Below are positions 2,260-37,399 of a DNA stretch of 64,000 nucleotides, one piece after another (position 1 is the first letter of the stretch; every line of letters starts with the position of its first letter). Location: the IMG/VR virus record IMGVR_UViG_3300027917_004314; one strand, written 5' to 3'. Source of the stretch: a virus. Taxonomy: Duplodnaviria; Caudoviricetes. Under the pieces are notes generated by a model. That model saw only the letters and a list, made by a program, of their open reading frames with translations. It had not been told where the DNA came from and made no database searches. Both the position numbers and the translations under genes were made by a program.

Positions 2260-2286
2260 ATTTTTTTGAAAACGGAGATACACGAA

Positions 2287-4863
2287 ATGCCTTCAAAATA
2301 TGATCGTGAGTATGCTCGTGATATTCCACTACCAGACTGGCTAAAGGAATTTGCCGATAGCAACTTAGATAAAAGTGGCACCACCATCGAGGATATTAAA
2401 AACCTTTTCCACACGAAGAATGAACTAGACTCTGTAGAGGCTAGGGTAGAAGAACTTCGAGAAAGGGTCGGATTAGACGCCATAGAAAAAACAGCTGCAA
2501 AACAAAAAGAACTAATTCCTGGAGGGTTTGCAGAAGGCCAGCCTGATGAGAAATATGATAAAGAGCAGCTTGGTAAAGGTATAGGCGTCGAAATGGAGCA
2601 CACGCCGGATTGGGAAGTTGCAAAAGAGATAACAAAAGATCATCTAGAAGAGTCCGAAGATTTTAAAGATGGTGAGGGTGGAAAATATTACGACAAGCTC
2701 GATAAGGCAGAAGAAGAGATTAAGAAAGAAGTTGATAAAAAGAAGGCTTTGCGTATACAGCGGCTGATTACTTTGGCGGATTATTTAGACGAAGAGGGAT
2801 GTGTTAATGGTGCTAAATATATAGACACCTTAATACGTAAGCTTGCCGACATGGAGCGTCTGCCAATCATGGCTGATCCCATATTATGGTCGGACGAACA
2901 ATTATTAGAAGTTGTTAATACTCCTGGTCTTAGTGAAATGGCAGCCAAGAAGCAGGTACCACCAAGCACTGCAGAAGGAAAGGAAAAAAGTTTACTGCAA
3001 GCAGTCGTGGATGAGATTAATAAAAGAAATATTGCTCAGGGCTTAAAACCGCCGAATGTAGAAGCATGGAGAGAACGAGGATATTGGCTGCTTTATGGTC
3101 TAAATGGACAGTTATTGGGTATTTATAATAATGATAGTAAGGCTCAGATGGCCAAATCTAAATTAGCTGATATGTTTGCTGCGGGACAAAGTTTTAATAT
3201 GATAGGCGGTGAATATATGCCCTATCTTATACAGTATATCGCAGAAAAGGCTCTTAGTGCTGTTGCACCTGAAGGGGATGATGATAAGCGAGAGGCTTTT
3301 TTCTTTTCTGCGGAAGCTGCAGATATCCATGATGATGCCGCAGAGAAAGCACGTGAACTTTTAACTGATCCAGGACTCGCGCGCAAAAGAAAGGAGCATG
3401 CTGAAAAGCAAATACAAATTGTAAAAACGCCTTGGCATTTTGAGGAATATATAGACCCCAAAGCGATTCCAGAAGGTCAGATACCTACTGATGAAAATGC
3501 AGACGCTGCTTTCGAGAGTACTAAAAAGTTTAATTTGGACCCCCAAAATAATGAGCTGCCAATAGTAAGACCAAATATACATGACACTCAAAGACCAGGG
3601 AGAAAAGAGTTTGTTAAAGATTATGAACGTGAAATTGTTCAGAAATATCGCAGAAAAGAGAAGGGTCTTCCTACAAGCAAAGAGGAAAGTACGGATGATG
3701 GTTTCGAGTTGTCTTGTCGTCATGGATTTAGGCTATCCAAAAGGGCAATTAAATGGTATGCTCCAAAAGAAACAAGTCCTGTGGTTGGGCCATGGCAGAG
3801 TTATAAGTTGCCGCCAGGTGCTGGCACAACGCTTGAACCTATTTCTGAAGAAGAAATGTGGAGAAGGGAACAGGCTAAAAAGCCTCAAGTGGTAGAACCA
3901 GAGCCAAGAGAAACGAAAGAGCCTGAGGCAGAACCAGAGGAAGAGCCGGAAAGCACCATGTCATCGTGGTATTTAATGGCAGCATTTGGACAAGGACTTG
4001 GTTGGTTTAAGGAGAAACAGCATGCAGAAGATGCCAAGTGGGCGGTTGTTAACCAGTTTTCTGATCTCGATATAGATAAGTCGGGCAAAAGCGTATTGTT
4101 CAATTGTTTTAAGGATTATCTACAAAATCTGTGGAATCGCCAAATAACAAACTCCCACGTAAAAACGGAGTTAATAAATTTTGTTAACAGCACTACCAAC
4201 CAGGTATACATTGATGAAAGGGATTTAGCAGGACAAAAAGCGGTACAAATTTATGAAATTGTGGAGCACGCATTTGCACCACGTGGTGGGATATATGGAG
4301 AAGATGAACACCCAACTGGAGATTATATCGATTTAGCCGTGATTGCACTTAAAGGATTAGGCAGCCAATACGAACGAACACATCCTCTTTATCAAGTGCC
4401 AGCGGATGCTGAAGATGCTATAAGCGCAAGTGCTGAAAATGGCGAGAGAGTTATACAGGAAGTAATTAGGTGGGCTGAAAGAAGAGCCGGTCATTCTGCG
4501 ACCGCGCCATCTTATACTGATGATAATGTAATAAAAGCATTCTATTTGTCAAAACGTGCAAAAGAGAAGAGCATTTTCGAGCAATTCCCGAAGCTAGAAA
4601 CCTTTGTCCGAAATGTTTGTCGTTCTCGCGGCGGCTATGTAGAACTTCCGGCCATACAAACAATGATTAGAAATGAAAGACCAGAGAACATAGATGTACA
4701 TAATAAGGAACTAGTTGAGTTTATCAAAAAGTGTCTAAAAGAAAATAAACAAGAAGTTCAAGACGATAACACACACGATGGCGAGTTTGTATCTGAAATA
4801 AGGATGTATGATGATGATGGAAACAGAACTGTCTTTTACGAGCCACCTAGCGATATTATATAG
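2287..4863 (+). CDS. Internal head protein with DUF5661-like domain, helical-hairpin tag and two FxLSKRA motifs
   Basis: GGAG RBS before ATG 2287; GIGVEMEH...AKEITKDHL...YYDKL resembles DUF5661; LITLADYLDEEG tag at 2764; FRLSKRA 3727, FYLSKRA 4540. Confidence 0.7.
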   Translation: MPSKYDREYARDIPLPDWLKEFADSNLDKSGTTIEDIKNLFHTKNELDSVEARVEELRERVGLDAIEKTAAKQKELIPGGFAEGQPDEKYDKEQLGKGIGVEMEHTPDWEVAKEITKDHLEESEDFKDGEGGKYYDKLDKAEEEIKKEVDKKKALRIQRLITLADYLDEEGCVNGAKYIDTLIRKLADMERLPIMADPILWSDEQLLEVVNTPGLSEMAAKKQVPPSTAEGKEKSLLQAVVDEINKRNIAQGLKPPNVEAWRERGYWLLYGLNGQLLGIYNNDSKAQMAKSKLADMFAAGQSFNMIGGEYMPYLIQYIAEKALSAVAPEGDDDKREAFFFSAEAADIHDDAAEKARELLTDPGLARKRKEHAEKQIQIVKTPWHFEEYIDPKAIPEGQIPTDENADAAFESTKKFNLDPQNNELPIVRPNIHDTQRPGRKEFVKDYEREIVQKYRRKEKGLPTSKEESTDDGFELSCRHGFRLSKRAIKWYAPKETSPVVGPWQSYKLPPGAGTTLEPISEEEMWRREQAKKPQVVEPEPRETKEPEAEPEEEPESTMSSWYLMAAFGQGLGWFKEKQHAEDAKWAVVNQFSDLDIDKSGKSVLFNCFKDYLQNLWNRQITNSHVKTELINFVNSTTNQVYIDERDLAGQKAVQIYEIVEHAFAPRGGIYGEDEHPTGDYIDLAVIALKGLGSQYERTHPLYQVPADAEDAISASAENGERVIQEVIRWAERRAGHSATAPSYTDDNVIKAFYLSKRAKEKSIFEQFPKLETFVRNVCRSRGGYVELPAIQTMIRNERPENIDVHNKELVEFIKKCLKENKQEVQDDNTHDGEFVSEIRMYDDDGNRTVFYEPPSDII

Positions 4864-20064: not shown

Positions 20065-20328
20065 ATGGTAATTAACAAACTCTCCGATAAGGCAAAAGTG
20101 GCGCTGCTTGGAAAACTAGATGCCATTATAGAAAATGATCCTCAAATCGAGGCCGATGATTCTATGGTTCTGTTGGCAGAGTTGGCGGATAGATTAGACG
20201 CCGAAGGTTTTTGTGAAGCAGCTAACGAGATAGATGCACTTATCGAACAAAAGAATAAAAAACTTAAAAGACCTGGGCGAATGAAAGCTAAAGAAATAAG
20301 ACAAAAATTCGCCAAGAATAAAAAGTAA
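20065..20328 (+). CDS. Small protein consisting mainly of the helical-hairpin tag
   Basis: LAELADRLDAEGFCEAANEIDALI; TAAATG coupling to neighbours. Confidence 0.75.
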   Translation: MVINKLSDKAKVALLGKLDAIIENDPQIEADDSMVLLAELADRLDAEGFCEAANEIDALIEQKNKKLKRPGRMKAKEIRQKFAKNKK

Positions 20329-20685
20329 ATGGGAAACAATTTTAGGTTATCCAACAGAATAGAAAAAACAGTGCAGACGCCAGCTCAGCGTACAGCTGAG
20401 TCATTGTTCAAAATTATTCAATTTATGTTTTATAGAGTGCCCGATAAGAATAAAGCGAAATTTCTGTCAAGAGTTAGAGGAAAAATAGTTAAATTAAATC
20501 CGGGTGCTTTGGGAACAAAACCGTTGCCGCCAACAGCAGCAATAGGTCAGGCAATCGGGCTGGCTAAAAATCTATTATATGGCCTTAACCCTAATTTTAT
20601 TCAAGAAGTTTTATCGGAGTTGGTAAAACTGTTATCTACAACTCCGCAACCAATAAAGCCTCTACCGCCGAGTGCTGGGGCATAA
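20329..20685 (+). CDS. Hypothetical protein with N-terminal FRLSNRI motif
   Basis: 118-aa ORF, TAAATG coupling. Confidence 0.7.
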   Translation: MGNNFRLSNRIEKTVQTPAQRTAESLFKIIQFMFYRVPDKNKAKFLSRVRGKIVKLNPGALGTKPLPPTAAIGQAIGLAKNLLYGLNPNFIQEVLSELVKLLSTTPQPIKPLPPSAGA

Positions 20686-28204: not shown

Positions 28205-28229
28205 AAACTATCTATTGGAGGTTTACAAA

Positions 28230-29048
28230 ATGACAAGCCTAAAGCGACAAGACGCTGATGAAATTATAGACGCAATGGCTAGGGCTCTTGGGGGTGATAT
28301 GTTCAAAGCGGCTTCGGTAGAGAAAGAAGCCCAAGGAATGAGCATAGAGCTATTGATGGCCCTTATGCATGAAGAATATAGGAAAGGCAAAGCGCAATAT
28401 GATTCTATGGATGAAGCGCAGGCAAGCAAGGCGGTATCTACCAAAGTGTGGAACGAGAATTTGGAAGATATTCAGGCACAAGAAAATAAAGAGCCTGGCT
28501 TTTTAGAGAGGGCTGCTGATCTGAGAGACAGCTATATGGTTCCAAAAAGAGCTGCCGATGATGGTGCTGCTGAACAACCTTGCGACGATTGCGACGAACA
28601 AATGGCACAAGACCAGCCAGAACGAGAAGCTCAGACTTCTCTAGCTATTGACTTTGCAATGGGTCATCTAGTGAAGATAGCTGATGCTCTTGATAACAAG
28701 GGTTTTGCCGGTGTGGCCAGCATTGTAGATGAAACAATCGAGAAATTAGCAAAAAAAAAAGTAAAAAAAAAGTATAAAACTTGGGAAGGAAAAGACGAGA
28801 AGTCGCCCAAAGGAGCAGAATATAAGGCTCCCAAGGAGTGGTTTGACAAAATGAAGGCAGATGTCAAAAAGAAGAATCCTGACTACTCTGCCAAAAGAAT
28901 TAGAGAGATTGTCGGAGATATTTGGGACAATGAGCTTAGCGAAAAGAAACGCAAATCTATCCTTAAAAAGTATGAAAAGGGTGGCAAGGAAAAGAAAGCT
29001 GAAGATGAAAGACCCGCTAAGCTTGCTAAATCCAAAGATCAAGACTAA
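28230..29048 (+). CDS. Internal protein: KxA motifs, helical-hairpin tag, basic HMG-box-like C-terminus
   Basis: GGAGG RBS before ATG 28230; HLVKIADALDNKG tag; KKNPDYSAKRIREIVGDIW. Confidence 0.75.
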   Translation: MTSLKRQDADEIIDAMARALGGDMFKAASVEKEAQGMSIELLMALMHEEYRKGKAQYDSMDEAQASKAVSTKVWNENLEDIQAQENKEPGFLERAADLRDSYMVPKRAADDGAAEQPCDDCDEQMAQDQPEREAQTSLAIDFAMGHLVKIADALDNKGFAGVASIVDETIEKLAKKKVKKKYKTWEGKDEKSPKGAEYKAPKEWFDKMKADVKKKNPDYSAKRIREIVGDIWDNELSEKKRKSILKKYEKGGKEKKAEDERPAKLAKSKDQD

Positions 29049-30141: not shown

Positions 30142-32892
30142 ATGCGCAATTTAAATATAGGCGGATCTTGGGAGGAAGAGTTCTATAAGATAGCATCTGA
30201 GAAAGGATGGATCGTAAAAGAAGCTGTTGAGCCCGAGCCCGCAACAGCACAAGAAGAAGGTTTGGAGTTCGAGCCGACTGTGGTTAGTGTGCCTAGGGCT
30301 GGGAAAACTATTTGGGATTTGCAGCAGATTCTTCAAGTAACGGTACCTACCATGCCGCTTAGCAAAGAGGGGGGGCCGGATGGTAAGTGGGGTCCTATGA
30401 CAGCCAGAGCATGGAATGCGCTGGCTAGTCAAGTTAACGCCAAGAAGGGAGATTTGGTGTTGACGGATGTCAACCCAGATGGTAGCGAACTTCCGATTTT
30501 AGACCAAATGAGGTGGGTTATAGCAGGGATGCCAAGTGGCACTTCCGAAGATATAGTTAAGGAGCTTCAAGGTGCCGGTGCTGCTGCAAAGGTGGACGAT
30601 GATATGAAAACTACAGCCTTTATAGTTCAAGAACTGATTTCTTTAGCTGGCGACCTAGAAGAAATGGGAGAAGTCGAGGCCGCTGTAGCTGTCGATAAAC
30701 AAATATCCATTTATAAGGAAGCGCTGGATAAGTTGTATGATGTAACTGGTGAAACAGGAGAACAGCTTGTCGAGCAGGCTCATCCGGGCGGCGGCCCTAC
30801 TATTGTCCCGGCAAAGGAAGAGGGCGGCAAAGTCGAGACTATTGTAGAAGAACAGAAGAAAAGTATCGACAAGGCAACTAAGAAGCCTACTGGTAAATAT
30901 GCCCAACTGATGCTTAATCTAATTGCTACCGCCAATAGCCTTGAGGATGAGGGTAGGACAGAAGAAGCCCAAATGGTGGATCAAACATTACGAGAACTGT
31001 TAGAGACACCCCCTTTCGCGGGTAGGGGTACAGCTTCCGAGACGGCTGGCTCCGAGGATTCGAAAGTCTCGGGCTTAGAGAAAACAGCGTTTATACAAGA
31101 GGGCATTCCTAGCGATATTAAAGACTTTCTCGGTCACCTTCGAGAGGATAAAGGAAATGTTGATAGGTTATATTGGCCTGCAATGGATGGGGTTATAAAC
31201 AAGCTTTCTCCACACATTGCCATATTTGAAAGAGTCGAAAAGTTAGATTTTACTAAAGAAGCAAATGTTAAGAAAGCTCAAAGAGCGGCTGTATTGTTGT
31301 ATAAAACTTTATTGCAGGCGCTTGGACCGGTATATACCATTGCAGAAAATAACAGATTATTAAGTAGAGGTATGATTCTTAAAAAGAGATTTTATGATAT
31401 TTTTACCTCTTTGAAGGAATTGCTTAGCGGTGCCTCATATGCAGCTAAAGAATTTGGTCCGAAAAAAGCTCCAAAACCGGCTCCGGCTGTCGCCAAGAAG
31501 CCTGAGTCTCAAATCCTTAGAAATTATAGGTCTGCTTTGCGAAGAGTGCTTAAAGTAATGGAAAACCCTGATTATAAGCTTCTGAATATTCTTGGTAAGG
31601 GTGATAGAAAAGCTGGCAGGCGCAAAGCTTTTGAAATTGAGAATATAATAAAAACAGAACTAAAGAAACACTACGATAAAATCCAGGCTGGAGACAGACT
31701 CGATGCGCTTTATAACAAAACTATAAAGCCCCTACAGACCCATGGAATTATTATTGCCTCGGCAAAGGAAGAGCTTGTAAAGGAAGCTGATCTTGGAATT
31801 TCTATTGCACCCAAGGAAAAGCCATCAAAGAAAAGGCCCGCGAAAGGTAAAGCCGTAGAGATAGATCCATTGGTGAAGACGTTTCAACAGGCAGCGATGG
31901 CGCTACATGGGCCAAATGCAGTCGGACCAAAGAAAGATGATGGTAAGTGGGGGCCTAGCACGAAAGGTGCCTATGAAAAGGTGATGGCTGAACTTCGTAA
32001 GGTAAAGCCAGATGCAAAAGTTTTCCCGGCACAACCAACGCCGCAATCGTTGAACTGGGGTATATATATTGCAGAACGGTTGGCTCAAATGAAAGGTGCT
32101 GCTCTTGGTTTGCCGCAAGATATGGACATTCCATATACAGATAAAATAAAGTTCAAGCTTAGAGAACTCGCAGATCCGAGAGCTTTTCTTACTACACTAG
32201 CTGGATTTAGGACGCAAAATGTTCTACCCGATGTACATACCGGAGAAGAAACCGCAGAAGCTTTTACAATACTTGCAAAGTTGTATAACAAACTTACTAG
32301 AGGCAAGGAATATAGAGAAAATCTAACGTTTAGTAGTGGAGTTGTCGGAGTTGCCGACAAGGCCGCAAAAGTTGTTTTTGATACTTTTAAGCAATTATAT
32401 AACATGCCTGGTGGCAAACAGAGTTATGAGGGATTGGTTAAAAAGAGAACGCCCGCAGCAAAAAAGGCTCCAAAGAAAACTCCAGAAGCACGCATGGATT
32501 TGTCATGGGCGGCACCAGGGCGCGAAAGAACCGAAGAGTTAGATACACCAGATAAAGTCGCTGTAGCGATTCGCGGATTGCCATTTATGGAGTTCTTGGC
32601 TCAAGTAGATGCATTTGAAGAAATCGCTTTGAACGCATCTAGATATGACAAAAGTCTTCGTGGATTTTGGGGCGAGACGGTTCCATATGGAAGTGAAACT
32701 CCCAAACAACGAAGAGAAGTGGCAAGGAAATTTTTGAAAAAACTTAAGACCAGAGCTGGACGTCTATATAGCGCTTTGGGCAGGGTTCAAGGAGAGTTTT
32801 TAGCTAAATATAACAAAAGGGATTTCTTAAATTTTGTACACCACATGCAGACTTATTTTGTAGCATTGAGGCAATTAGCAGAGGCATTATGA
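30142..32892 (+). CDS. Putative ejection/internal protein with two hairpin tags, two PG-binding-like motifs and candidate -1 frameshift
   Basis: DGKWGPMT and DGKWGPST motifs; tags at 30634 and 30919; C_CCT_TTC at 31011. Confidence 0.75.
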   Translation: MRNLNIGGSWEEEFYKIASEKGWIVKEAVEPEPATAQEEGLEFEPTVVSVPRAGKTIWDLQQILQVTVPTMPLSKEGGPDGKWGPMTARAWNALASQVNAKKGDLVLTDVNPDGSELPILDQMRWVIAGMPSGTSEDIVKELQGAGAAAKVDDDMKTTAFIVQELISLAGDLEEMGEVEAAVAVDKQISIYKEALDKLYDVTGETGEQLVEQAHPGGGPTIVPAKEEGGKVETIVEEQKKSIDKATKKPTGKYAQLMLNLIATANSLEDEGRTEEAQMVDQTLRELLETPPFAGRGTASETAGSEDSKVSGLEKTAFIQEGIPSDIKDFLGHLREDKGNVDRLYWPAMDGVINKLSPHIAIFERVEKLDFTKEANVKKAQRAAVLLYKTLLQALGPVYTIAENNRLLSRGMILKKRFYDIFTSLKELLSGASYAAKEFGPKKAPKPAPAVAKKPESQILRNYRSALRRVLKVMENPDYKLLNILGKGDRKAGRRKAFEIENIIKTELKKHYDKIQAGDRLDALYNKTIKPLQTHGIIIASAKEELVKEADLGISIAPKEKPSKKRPAKGKAVEIDPLVKTFQQAAMALHGPNAVGPKKDDGKWGPSTKGAYEKVMAELRKVKPDAKVFPAQPTPQSLNWGIYIAERLAQMKGAALGLPQDMDIPYTDKIKFKLRELADPRAFLTTLAGFRTQNVLPDVHTGEETAEAFTILAKLYNKLTRGKEYRENLTFSSGVVGVADKAAKVVFDTFKQLYNMPGGKQSYEGLVKKRTPAAKKAPKKTPEARMDLSWAAPGRERTEELDTPDKVAVAIRGLPFMEFLAQVDAFEEIALNASRYDKSLRGFWGETVPYGSETPKQRREVARKFLKKLKTRAGRLYSALGRVQGEFLAKYNKRDFLNFVHHMQTYFVALRQLAEAL
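31011..31073 (+). promoter_or_regulatory. Candidate programmed -1 ribosomal frameshift signal (slippery heptamer + pseudoknot)
   Basis: In-phase C_CCT_TTC 31011-17; 7-nt spacer; stem 31025-35/31044-53; loop CCGAGAC pairs with GTCTCGG 31066-72; -1 TAG at 31023-25. Confidence 0.65.
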
Positions 32893-34046
32893 CCAATATA
32901 TTAACTACTAATAATGACAAGCAAATTATTAGAGAAGCTGACATGTTGGCAAATTTTGTATCTGGTGCTTTAGGTAGAGTTAAAGACGATATCAATTTAA
33001 GGGAGAAGCCCTTTGAGACAATCTTCACCGTAATGACTCCAGTAATTGCCCTCAGGTTTGGGTTTCTTTTAGGTAGTATTATAATTGCCGCTGATTATGC
33101 ATTTGGTGCTGGGCCAAGTGCTCTTGGAAGGATGATAGACAACTACCTCAAGATGGGTGGCGCAAAAGACGTGGCGCAAATGGATCTTTCGGAATCTAAC
33201 CTTGAAAAGGCATCAACGTTTTCTCTAGGACAAATTTGGTCTACGCTACAGTCGAAAGCAGGATTAGAATCTAAATCAACGCTTCAAGATATTATGATGG
33301 TTAAAGGATGTATTACACCAAATGACGTAAAGACAGCCTTTTACGTTGGTTTATATAAAGAATCTCAACCTTGGGGATATAGAAGGCCTTGGTTTGGTAG
33401 TAGATATTCGAGGTATTGGGGTACCAGAAGTGGATTTTTTAGAAGGTTTATGAGTGGTGTAAGGTATGGTGGTAGGCTCCCATTTTTCTCAGCTGCACTG
33501 CTTGGATTGTTAAAAGCAGTTGCTAGCGGCTTGGCGATTTTTATGTTGACCGGCGGCGTTGCTAAAATGGTTGGTCTTAAGAGCAAAAAAGAACGGGAAA
33601 TCCGTAAAGAGACTCCATCTGCTTTCAAGTTTCATGATGACGATCCGTTGCTTCCTAGCAAACTGAAGTCTCAGACAATGCAATATTATTCTAATGTTGC
33701 AGGAGATGTAGAAGATACATTAATAAAATTTTTGGATACTTCGGTAGCCAATTTTTCTAGAGCTTTTCAATCTGTAAATGGAATGCCACTAAAGGGCTCG
33801 GCAAAAATGAAATCTGTTTTACAAGATGTAGAGCTTTTAAATTGGGGCACTTTAAATGAGATTAATAAAAGAAAAGCATTTGTGGCTCCAAGAGTAATTA
33901 ATTTGGCGAAAAAATTATTACCAGAAGCACAATATGAAAGAGTTAAAGCGACACCATTGATAAAGAAGAAGCCGTTGCCGACACCAGTTGAAAAAGAATC
34001 GCCAAAAATTGAGGAGTTGTCGGGACTTCTTCAAGGAGCGCATTAA
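32889..34046 (+). CDS. Putative membrane-spanning ejection protein
   Basis: Two long hydrophobic Gly/Ala-rich segments and an Arg/aromatic-rich tract; lies among tagged internal proteins. Confidence 0.6.
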   Translation: MTNILTTNNDKQIIREADMLANFVSGALGRVKDDINLREKPFETIFTVMTPVIALRFGFLLGSIIIAADYAFGAGPSALGRMIDNYLKMGGAKDVAQMDLSESNLEKASTFSLGQIWSTLQSKAGLESKSTLQDIMMVKGCITPNDVKTAFYVGLYKESQPWGYRRPWFGSRYSRYWGTRSGFFRRFMSGVRYGGRLPFFSAALLGLLKAVASGLAIFMLTGGVAKMVGLKSKKEREIRKETPSAFKFHDDDPLLPSKLKSQTMQYYSNVAGDVEDTLIKFLDTSVANFSRAFQSVNGMPLKGSAKMKSVLQDVELLNWGTLNEINKRKAFVAPRVINLAKKLLPEAQYERVKATPLIKKKPLPTPVEKESPKIEELSGLLQGAH

Positions 34047-35440
34047 TGTACAAAGAATGGGAAAGCAGCGGCGTTATGCAAGAATTTCTAAAAGTCGCTG
34101 CAAAATCGGGTTTGATAACATCAGATCTACAACAAAAAGAACTAGCTGGTAATGCCGACGAGGAGACGCCTGTAAAAGATCACAGGAGATATGAACCTAC
34201 CGAAGAATACGAGCTAGAGGTAGAGGGTGGAAATTTAGTTGAGAAAGCTCACCCAGAACAAGCGTGGACGGCCAAACAAAGTCCCATAATGAATAGTATG
34301 GGCGAAGGAAGTCTTGTAGAAAACATTGAAGAACAGCAAAAAAAAGATATCGAGGTCGCAACCAAGATGCCTAGCGGCGCATTGCCTGGCATTCATGCCT
34401 CGATGGTTTCTGAGTTGATTAAACTTGCTGATCGGCTTGATGGAGAAAACAAGACTAAAGAAGCAGCAAGAATTGATGAAACGATTGAGAGGCTTGGCCG
34501 CCTCCCTTTCGCCGATAGCCGCCCGCGCATTAAAGAAGGCGGTTGGTTTGCGCCAATCGTACTTTTAATTACTACTGTAGCACCACTCGCTTGGGATTAT
34601 TTTTTTAACAAAGGTAAAATAACAACCACTAAAGGCAAACCTGATGTGGGGAAAGGTAGAGTTGTTAGGACAAGGAAAGCTCCAATGGGTAGGGTTGGCA
34701 AAGTTATTACCACAATAGGACTTGGTTTATCAGCGTTAACCTTGCTAGGAAAAAAGATCACAAGCGTGCAAGAAGGCATTAAAAAAGACACGAAAGATCT
34801 ACATGATGTGCTACAAAAGGCAGCACCAGAATCAGCTGCAGCAGCTCAGGCTGCGGCGAAATTAGCACCATATATCAAAGAACTTGAACAAAAGCCAACA
34901 AAGCCAGAAGATTATACGAGATATCGGCAAAAGGTTATAGAACTTAAGAGCTTATTGCCATCTATCAGGAAACACATAGACGACGCATTGTCTACTGACA
35001 TCGAGGCTGGCCTTTGGACATGGACAGGGTTAGATTTACACTCTAGAATAGCTGAAAAATTGAATACTTGGGAAGCCGACCTGGAAGCCGTAAAAACGAA
35101 GGGGGCTAGGTTAGATGCTGTGGCGGCAGAAGAATATCGACGGACGCCAATGGTTATGGAGGGCGTTTATGGTTTGCAACAAGTGCTAACACTAAATGGT
35201 CTGCTTTCTAAAAATCAAATAAGTGGTGCGATGGATGATGTGACGCTTAAAGCGACACAGCAGCTAGAGAAACGCTTAGACACAGACACTGATACTCTCT
35301 ATAGTAAGAAAATTATTAGGCGAAAACCAAAGGATGGTTTTGCTGGCAAAATAGTTAGAAACGGCCAATTGGTTATGAGACCTGAAAAATTGCAGAGGAT
35401 CATAAGTCTTATAGACCAACTTAAAGCCAAAATGGGTTAA
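34046..35440 (+). CDS. Putative ejection/internal protein, N-terminal paralogue of 30142, candidate -1 frameshift
   Basis: WESSGVMQE leader, AHP..ATKMPSG module, LIKLADRLDG tag, C_CCT_TTC at 34504, hydrophobic segments, PG-binding-like LQQVL..SGAMDDVT. Confidence 0.75.
   Translation: MYKEWESSGVMQEFLKVAAKSGLITSDLQQKELAGNADEETPVKDHRRYEPTEEYELEVEGGNLVEKAHPEQAWTAKQSPIMNSMGEGSLVENIEEQQKKDIEVATKMPSGALPGIHASMVSELIKLADRLDGENKTKEAARIDETIERLGRLPFADSRPRIKEGGWFAPIVLLITTVAPLAWDYFFNKGKITTTKGKPDVGKGRVVRTRKAPMGRVGKVITTIGLGLSALTLLGKKITSVQEGIKKDTKDLHDVLQKAAPESAAAAQAAAKLAPYIKELEQKPTKPEDYTRYRQKVIELKSLLPSIRKHIDDALSTDIEAGLWTWTGLDLHSRIAEKLNTWEADLEAVKTKGARLDAVAAEEYRRTPMVMEGVYGLQQVLTLNGLLSKNQISGAMDDVTLKATQQLEKRLDTDTDTLYSKKIIRRKPKDGFAGKIVRNGQLVMRPEKLQRIISLIDQLKAKMG
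34504..34553 (+). promoter_or_regulatory. Candidate programmed -1 ribosomal frameshift signal
   Basis: In-phase C_CCT_TTC 34504-10; stem AGCCGCC/GGCGGTT 34517-23/34538-44; loop GCGCA pairs with TGCGC 34549-53; -1 TAG at 34516-18; GAGG 11 nt upstream. Confidence 0.6.
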
Positions 35441-36367: not shown

Positions 36368-37399
36368 ATGTCGTTATTTAGTACATATGGAAAACAAGGC
36401 GAGCTGAATGCGAGTTCCGTTAGAGATGCTCTTGCGAACATTGTGAAGTACGCTAGCGTACTTGACGATTTGGCCCCTGCAAACCAGGGTCTAGCGCAAC
36501 AGCCATCCTATACGGATGATCAGCGTAACGAGCTTATTAAGCGCGCTTTGATGACGCAAGAAGGCAAGATTGCTCTTGGCCAGGCAATGGCCAATCCGAT
36601 CCGCAGAAACTTGGATTATCAAGGAGTGGGCCGGAGAGTTTTGGTTGTCGACCCGTTGCCCCAAGGTGCTCTTCCTGTATACGACCGCGATATCGATGTC
36701 GCAGCTACCGTTGTTTCTAGCAATGGTTCTGCTCCAGAGAGCCGCGTGTTCGGTGACAGGGTGACTGTACCTGAGTTTGAGGTTGTTTCTAATCCTACTG
36801 TGCGTATTGCTGAGGTAAGAAGGCGTCGTTTTAACGTGATCGACCGTGCTCAGCAGAAGGCAAGGCAAGAGATCCAGGCACAAGAAGATGCTAACATTTT
36901 CGCGTCCCTCGATTTCGCAGCCGATGCAACGCTTGGTGGAGAGAACACTGCCCAGGATATTGCTGATGCGGGACTTCTAAAGCGTGACCTTTCCGAGATT
37001 AAGGTTCAGGTAGACCGTTGGGACCTTGTAACTACTAAGTTCCTCATGAATATCATTGAATTTAATGACATTCTGAATTGGGCAACTGGTGGTGGCCAAG
37101 GATCTAATGGCGGCGAGGTTGATCCTGTTACGATGAGAGAGATCCTTCAGACTGGTCTATATGCCCACATCTGGGGTGCAGACATCATCGTTTCTAAGAT
37201 CGTCCCAGTCGGAACCGTTTTCGGAACCGCCGATCCAGAGTTCGTAGGTGTTATGCCTGTCCGTCAGGACATCGAGGTACTACCTGCCGATGAGCCCAAG
37301 CAGCTAAAGCTTGGTTGGGTTATCTCTGAGATCATCGGAATCGGCATCGTCAACCCACGCGGTTGCGCTGTTGGTCGTAAGTCTGTTGCTGTTGGCTAA
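36368..37399 (+). CDS. Major capsid protein (HK97 fold)
   Basis: Strong AGGAGG RBS; 343 aa; follows decoration gene; RRNLDYQG..DPLPQGALPVYD, FNVIDRAQ..IQAQED, GWVISEIIGIGIVNP pattern; strong terminator after. Confidence 0.88.
   Translation: MSLFSTYGKQGELNASSVRDALANIVKYASVLDDLAPANQGLAQQPSYTDDQRNELIKRALMTQEGKIALGQAMANPIRRNLDYQGVGRRVLVVDPLPQGALPVYDRDIDVAATVVSSNGSAPESRVFGDRVTVPEFEVVSNPTVRIAEVRRRRFNVIDRAQQKARQEIQAQEDANIFASLDFAADATLGGENTAQDIADAGLLKRDLSEIKVQVDRWDLVTTKFLMNIIEFNDILNWATGGGQGSNGGEVDPVTMREILQTGLYAHIWGADIIVSKIVPVGTVFGTADPEFVGVMPVRQDIEVLPADEPKQLKLGWVISEIIGIGIVNPRGCAVGRKSVAVG

Follow-up and report, generated by a model that had tools for sequence, protein, structure and literature searches.

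In Escherichia coli dnaX (tau/gamma), ribosomes that slip by −1 on an in-phase X_XXY_YYZ heptamer meet a stop codon almost immediately, which makes a truncated N-terminal form at a set ratio; the slip is stimulated by a downstream RNA stem-loop. The E. coli copA gene carries the heptamer C_CCA_AAG with a downstream pseudoknot. To our knowledge, pseudoknot-stimulated shift-to-stop sites are very few in bacterial systems, dnaX having a stem-loop and copA being one example, and the well-supported −1 frameshift sites of phages lie almost all in tail-chaperone genes, with few in capsid genes. In copA, the −1 frameshift into an early stop yields a product of 70 amino acids (aa) vs 834 aa, a short N-terminal domain protein (PMC5009743). 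Here, we analysed a 64,000-nucleotide stretch of DNA from a virus of the Caudoviricetes (the window; IMG/VR record IMGVR_UViG_3300027917_004314), in which an initial annotation had proposed a programmed −1 ribosomal frameshift (−1 PRF) site with an H-type pseudoknot in gene 30142-32892. The comparison with homologues indicates that this site is very probably a selected −1 frameshift signal of the shift-to-stop type.

The features of the gene and of the site, all on the plus strand, are as follows.
30142..32892, plus strand: type-A gene P0001, 916 aa, the zero-frame long isoform.
30142..31025, plus strand: predicted coding range of the short isoform, 294 aa (292 residues read in frame 0, followed after the slip by Arg-Gly and the UAG of frame −1).
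31011..31017, plus strand: slippery heptamer C_CCU_UUC, in phase, with Pro291 at the P site and Phe292 at the A site.
31018..31024, plus strand: spacer of 7 nt between heptamer and stem 1, with equal spacing in 22 aligned homologues.
31023..31025, plus strand: −1 frame stop UAG, two sense codons past the heptamer.
31025..31035, plus strand: stem 1, 5' arm (31025-29 and 31031-35, with A31030 bulged; 10 bp).
31037..31043, plus strand: stem 2, 5' arm CCGAGAC, in the stem-1 loop.
31044..31053, plus strand: stem 1, 3' arm, pairing with 31025-35.
31054..31065, plus strand: loop 3, 12 nt, its 3' end A-rich in most homologues.
31066..31072, plus strand: stem 2, 3' arm GTCTCGG, the exact complement of CCGAGAC.

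Since 31011 falls on the third base of a codon, C|CCT|TTC forms an in-phase X_XXY_YYZ heptamer, and the −1 codons read past a slip would be CGC (31017-19), GGG (31020-22) and TAG (31023-25). What the initial annotation had described is thus present in the letters: the in-phase Pro-Phe heptamer, the 7-nt spacer followed by stem 1 (where the bulged A31030 had gone unmentioned), the loop complementary to 31066-72, and a −1 stop that would give 294 aa instead of 916. It had also singled out a GC-rich patch. The patch is indeed GC-rich (0.54), yet it is not unique, with 0.58 at 30350-30449 and 0.56 at 30750-30849.

Taken alone, the heptamer is within chance (28 CCCTTTY in the window vs 23.7 expected), and it is the comparative data that put it beyond chance. 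For this, 48 loci were collected and the residue aligned to Pro291 was located in each; the resulting type-A set comprises 28 distinct metagenomic sequences that are 44-79% identical in the core. In all 28, the codon before the proline ends in C, against a background of 12% C at third positions, and this although the residue itself varies (P, D, L, H, N, S, A, F, Y, R). The Pro291 codon is CCT in 28/28, whereas each of the other 33 conserved four-fold-degenerate core columns is polymorphic and the three other conserved proline columns use 3-4 codons each (P215 is CCA in 9, CCC in 6, CCT in 6 and CCG in 6). Phe292 is encoded by TTC in 24/28, while TTC makes up 23% of the Phe codons in these genes. 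A −1 stop stands exactly two codons past the heptamer in 27 of the 28 sequences (chance ~9% per gene), the exception (L023) having it one codon later; it is TAG or TAA and lies beneath varied zero-frame residues (NR, SR, GR, GN, VN, NK, HN). Past the site, the zero frame of every homologue runs on without a stop for hundreds of codons. Finally, the combined pattern CCCTTTY-N5-TAR occurs on the coding strand of the source genome (a 161-kb record, which is the basis of this count) at only two sites, both of them cassettes of the kind described here, and among the first 48 loci it matches at homologous sites only. In E. coli, the motif classes of C_CCU_UUC (H_HH.U_UU.Y) and of A_AAA_AAG (V_VV.A_AA.R; see below) are among the most efficient (PMC4066793), a ranking that may differ in the host of this phage.

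The CCCTTTY motifs of the window are unevenly split between the strands (4 on the coding plus strand, 2 of which are cassettes, and 24 on the minus strand), an imbalance that probably reflects the purine skew of the coding strand. Separately, Shine-Dalgarno (SD)-like tetramers were seen at positions −16 to −7 from the heptamer in 14/28 type-A sites and in 9/15 sites of a second gene type (type B, below), for a background of 13%, and are often built with the rare Arg codon AGG. At the site in P0001 no such element is found at −16 to −7; the second site of the window has GAGAGG.

Stimulatory structures generally begin 5-8 nt downstream of the heptamer (PMC4066793), and stem 1 begins within this range. 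The arms follow one another (31025-35, 31037-43, 31044-53, 31066-72) in the order expected of an H-type pseudoknot, with L1, L2 and L3 of 1, 0 and 12 nt; its steric feasibility was judged from general pseudoknot geometry. The computed energies are −11.4 kcal/mol for the stem-1 hairpin and −10.7 kcal/mol for the stem-2 duplex. The structure proposed in the initial annotation was scored for covariation on the 22 of 28 type-A sites that align without gaps. In these, 92.5% of the pairing cells can pair, vs 22-43% in slid controls, with the 3' partners displaced by 1-3 columns. Compensatory changes, on both sides of a pair, are found in 13/17 pairs, and the observed values were reached in 0/500 shuffles. 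Both helices contribute: stem 1 has 95% of its cells paired and compensatory changes in 7/10 pairs, and stem 2 has 89% paired and compensatory changes in 6/7 pairs. Examples are the pairs 31029-31049 (C-G, U-A, U-G), 31031-31048 (C-G, U-A) and 31042-31067 (G-C, A-U). In four homologues (L018, L024, L030, L032) the stem-1 sequences are largely different and the pairing is retained; moreover, synonymous codon choice within the stems opposes the bias of these genes (TCC, GAG, xxC). The initial annotation had named the case that would speak against it, namely homologues that keep Pro-Phe without the heptamer, the −1 stop or the base pairing, and the homologues present the opposite picture. Altogether, these comparisons strongly support its interpretation as −1 PRF with an H-type pseudoknot, and they show selection on the slipperiness, on the −1 stop and on the pseudoknot. 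The AGGAG within stem 1 was also considered as a signal for an internal translation start; this was rejected, as none of the frames has a conserved start codon 5-12 nt past it.

A paralogue two genes downstream of the P0001 gene, P0015, carries a cassette of its own.
34046..35440, plus strand: type-B paralogue P0015, 464 aa.
34504..34510, plus strand: second heptamer C_CCU_UUC, in phase.
34516..34518, plus strand: −1 UAG of the second cassette, read as CGC CGA UAG.
34518..34553, plus strand: candidate pseudoknot of the second cassette, different from the first and weakly testable by covariation.

P0015 matches P0001 at E = 1e-12, the match ending at Pro-Phe. It has the N-terminal peptide and the second half of a conserved helical module as in P0001, and hydrophobic segments past the frameshift site. 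In its candidate pseudoknot, the stem would pair GCCGCC (34518-23) with GGCGGU (34538-43), and the loop helix GCGCA (34525-29) with UGCGC (34549-53). A further scan of type-B orthologues found C_CCU_UUY kept in 14/15 and a −1 stop (TGA, TAA or TAG) 1-3 codons past the heptamer in 13/15 sites. In the distant type-B relatives L076 and L093 (1747-1790), Lys-Lys-Lys replaces Pro-Phe and is encoded by an in-phase A_AAA_AAG within a nine-A run, with a −1 TAG two codons past A_AAA_AAG. In the majority of the more distant relatives examined (L063-L105; e.g. L066, L070, L081), the module open reading frame (ORF) stops normally at the equivalent point, and P0082 and P0094 (~800 aa) have the module at their C terminus. 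The second cassette and the alternative heptamer A_AAA_AAG lend independent support to a frameshift signal.

Several observations weigh against this interpretation. Pro-Phe is invariant at the protein level, and part of the conservation could come from there. The covariation counts were made without correction for phylogeny; the slid controls share equal relatedness. Nested-only folding of 70 and 181 nt is unexceptional against shuffles (z = +0.88 and +0.75), as is expected where two crossing helices compete, and this measure is uninformative for a pseudoknot. Rfam returned no family match to the site, with only a chance-level match to a small RNA on the other strand (E = 3.6). Seven sites (L006, L008, L029, L054, L055, L057, L059) have no obvious strong downstream structure; one type-B site (L058) reads A_CCU_UUC, and the relative L060 has no cassette. 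In the six type-A sites outside the covariation set (the TAA group), as in several type-B sites, the stems are different or weaker, and therefore heptamer and stop are more constant than the stimulator.

How far could the same data be accounted for without ribosomal frameshifting? The conserved pseudoknot, whose covariation shows the RNA structure to be real, would together with the pyrimidine motif also fit another RNA role, such as a pause at a domain boundary, an effect on mRNA stability or processing, or a protein-binding site, with no appreciable frameshifting and with the −1 stop merely a 'hidden stop' by which chance slips are made less costly. The site does lie at a domain boundary, where pausing could aid folding, and in type B hydrophobic segments follow it. 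A pause element, however, needs no in-phase X_XXY_YYZ, and harmful slippage would be selected away by one synonymous change, whereas the slippery state is fixed in 28/28 type-A and 14/15 type-B sites and the heptamer is swapped in L076 and L093 for a different, even more slippery one; we consider such a role unlikely. Less likely still is conservation of the protein alone, in which Pro-Phe and the peptide xRSxASE xAGSED would serve for binding or for maturation cleavage, with heptamer, stop and pairings as by-products. In its favour, processing is common among the head proteins of large phages, neither P291 nor F292 varies, and the peptide behind them is fairly conserved. It leaves unexplained the fixed C in a variable codon, the exclusive use of CCT and the use of TTC against the bias, as well as the retention of TAG or TAA in a second frame while the residues above it differ, and the compensatory changes that alter amino acids. 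The change of PF to KKK in L076 and L093 also speaks against it, and the peptide is part of a linker predicted to be disordered. The conservation of this linker peptide past Pro-Phe (PF-x-x-R-S-x-A-S-E...) is probably due to the RNA signal that it encodes and not to a function in the protein.

The slip could also be made by RNA polymerase and not by the ribosome. Runs of nine A are of a length at which bacterial RNA polymerases slip (reviewed in PMC5009743), and transcriptional slippage is conceivable for the A9 variants, L076 and L093. At the site in the window the run is C5U3 (C3-4U3-4 elsewhere), far below the lengths known for transcriptional slippage, which makes it implausible there, and a covarying pseudoknot at 7 nt is a hallmark of ribosomal frameshifting; we regard this explanation as very improbable, on a par with conservation of the protein alone.

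For the ribosomal −1 frameshift that we favour, the mechanism would be as follows. At C_CCU_UUC, Pro-tRNA would sit on CCU in the P site and Phe-tRNA on UUC in the A site, while the pseudoknot 7 nt downstream resists unwinding. In some ribosomes, both tRNAs would then re-pair one base back, on CCC and UUU; these ribosomes would read Arg-Gly, terminate at UAG and release a 294-aa protein, which consists of the N-terminal region and the helical module and would end a few residues past the last helix. Ribosomes that do not slip would make the 916-aa protein with its C-terminal region. The paralogue 34046-35440 would use an equal device. We infer from the comparative record that frameshifting occurs and fixes the short-to-long ratio.

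This point of truncation can be placed on the predicted structure. P0001 comprises a conserved peptide at the N terminus, a domain resembling PG_binding, the conserved helical module (residues ~158-292) and a disordered linker (289-313); its C-terminal region is helical and contains a second DGxWGP motif. The AlphaFold2 prediction, made with 24 homologues, has residues 289-313 disordered, with two small DGxWGP-centred domains and the rest helical; modelled alone, the module forms two helical hairpins around a highly conserved centre of low confidence. The last predicted module helix ends ~4 residues before Pro-Phe, and in the models the short product would thus end at a domain boundary. The most conserved stretch of the module (window 30775-30900, residues ~205-235 of P0001) reads TGETGEQL..AHPGGGP....EEGGKVETIVEEQKK; its predicted local distance difference test (pLDDT) score is below 50, as if it folded only on a partner. 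The profile of the core module (A4) matches 1,266 representative proteins at E <= 1e-3. Searches with the full AlphaFold2 model (Foldseek against the PDB) returned generic helical repeats only, and the look-alikes in the ESM Atlas were uninformative; no structural or family match points to a function. The 1385-aa protease-scaffold protein was considered as a homologue of the module and set aside, as the only pairwise match is weak (E = 0.015) and the hidden Markov model (HMM) of the module has no match there.

The hairpin half of the module (L..LA..LD..G....A..VD..I) is found by the module HMM in three more ORFs of the head module (E from 6e-6 to 5e-4).
2266-4863: hairpin half at residues ~149-197.
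28215-29048: hairpin half.
20065-20325: hairpin half.

This recurrence suggests a 'tag' shared by several head proteins. Right after the hairpin tag of ORF 28215-29048, at ~28749-28772, we observed a run of ten A and then one of nine (zero frame AKKKVKKKY); these runs are potentially slippery, no −1 stop was seen near them, and they are not counted as a cassette.

The P22-type scaffolding proteins have a C-terminal coat-binding helix-turn-helix. On this model, the roles that we infer for the two isoforms are the following. Speculatively, the short form would be a scaffold-like or adaptor protein of head assembly in which the helical hairpin must be C-terminal, an idea suggested because the tag ends the protein in the majority of the distant relatives examined and P22-type scaffolds have their helix-turn-helix at the C terminus. 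The long forms might tether extra domains, peptidoglycan-binding and helical ones in type A and membrane-like ones in type B, which is equally speculative. As a whole, the recoding could be a device for the stoichiometry of head assembly, where two paralogues make short scaffold-like proteins with a C-terminal tag and a fixed share of long forms brings domains of peptidoglycan-binding or membrane-like type into the capsid, to be ejected later; we offer this only tentatively, and it may well prove wrong.

The genes of the window run on the same strand and the source is a large phage. The P0001 gene belongs to the head module and lies 3.5 kb upstream of the major capsid gene (36368-37399, major head protein, PHROG 2522, E = 1e-76), whose product has as its nearest cultured relative that of the 497-kb Bacillus phage G (54% identity). 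The relatives of P0001 are metagenomic; the closest homologue, P0002, is 85% identical, and the protein is also present on a 461-kb contig. No match to the P0001 gene, and no cultured phage that carries it, was found by blastn and tblastn against 50,697 phage records, and Pfam and PHROGs gave no family for P0001, P0015 and ten distant module proteins; the sole Pfam match among the relatives is PG_binding_1, in 8/24. A recoded TAG or alternative genetic code was considered and rejected: with table 11 the ORFs come out long and contiguous, and 5/39 of them end in TAG, an ordinary stop in the source phage.

The signal has unusually clear phylogenetic support and is conserved in dozens of related phages, a clade with genomes of 100-470 kb in which each genome has two paralogues; literature searches found no description of the site. 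Such genes should be annotated with two products, research on recoding gains a small natural pseudoknot that comes in many covarying variants, and the family offers an entry point to the assembly and loading of giant phage heads.

Recoding in a head module is also seen in phage G, the nearest cultured relative, where gp22/gp23 (L049 19865-21534) is annotated as a two-piece coding sequence between the protease and the major capsid gene. Near the join (20596-20611) the sequence reads G GTA AAA AAG TAG, with A_AAA_AAG next to the zero-frame stop. There, in contrast to P0001, the gene encodes a LysM-type 'endolysin' and it is the zero frame that stops, so that the shift extends the product. A homology between the two frameshifts was rejected, as the proteins (no tblastn match to P0001), the heptamers and the directions of the effect differ.

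The lambda G/GT tail assembly chaperone resembles what is predicted for the present site in that a conserved −1 PRF in a phage structural module sets a ratio of forms sharing an N terminus; it differs in its place between the tail tube and tape-measure genes and in that the shift extends, whereas here the site is in the head module and the shift would truncate. The IS3-family elements (IS3, IS911, IS150) have bacterial −1 PRF signals whose downstream stimulators, pseudoknots or branched stems, stand 5-8 nt from the heptamer (PMC4066793), a spacing shared by the present site, but there the shift fuses two ORFs into a longer transposase. In outcome the site comes closest to the shift-to-stop genes. 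Like dnaX, it would combine a slip into a near-immediate stop with a stimulatory downstream RNA structure, and some members of the family use A_AAA_AAG; many of its sites have SD-like tetramers 7-16 nt upstream, which may or may not correspond to the SD-like stimulator that dnaX has about 10 nt 5' of its heptamer; unlike dnaX, it has C_CCU_UUC and an H-type pseudoknot instead of a simple stem-loop, lies in an unrelated gene family of a viral genome, and has no clear upstream SD-like element at the first site of the window. With copA it would share the making of a short N-terminal domain protein through a −1 shift to an early stop, the heptamer, protein family and role being different; copA is backed by ribosome profiling and by protein evidence, the present site by sequence comparison. 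On this evidence, the predicted mechanism is that of canonical −1 PRF and its outcome resembles that of dnaX and copA, at what would be a new site in an uncharacterised head-protein family of megaphages.

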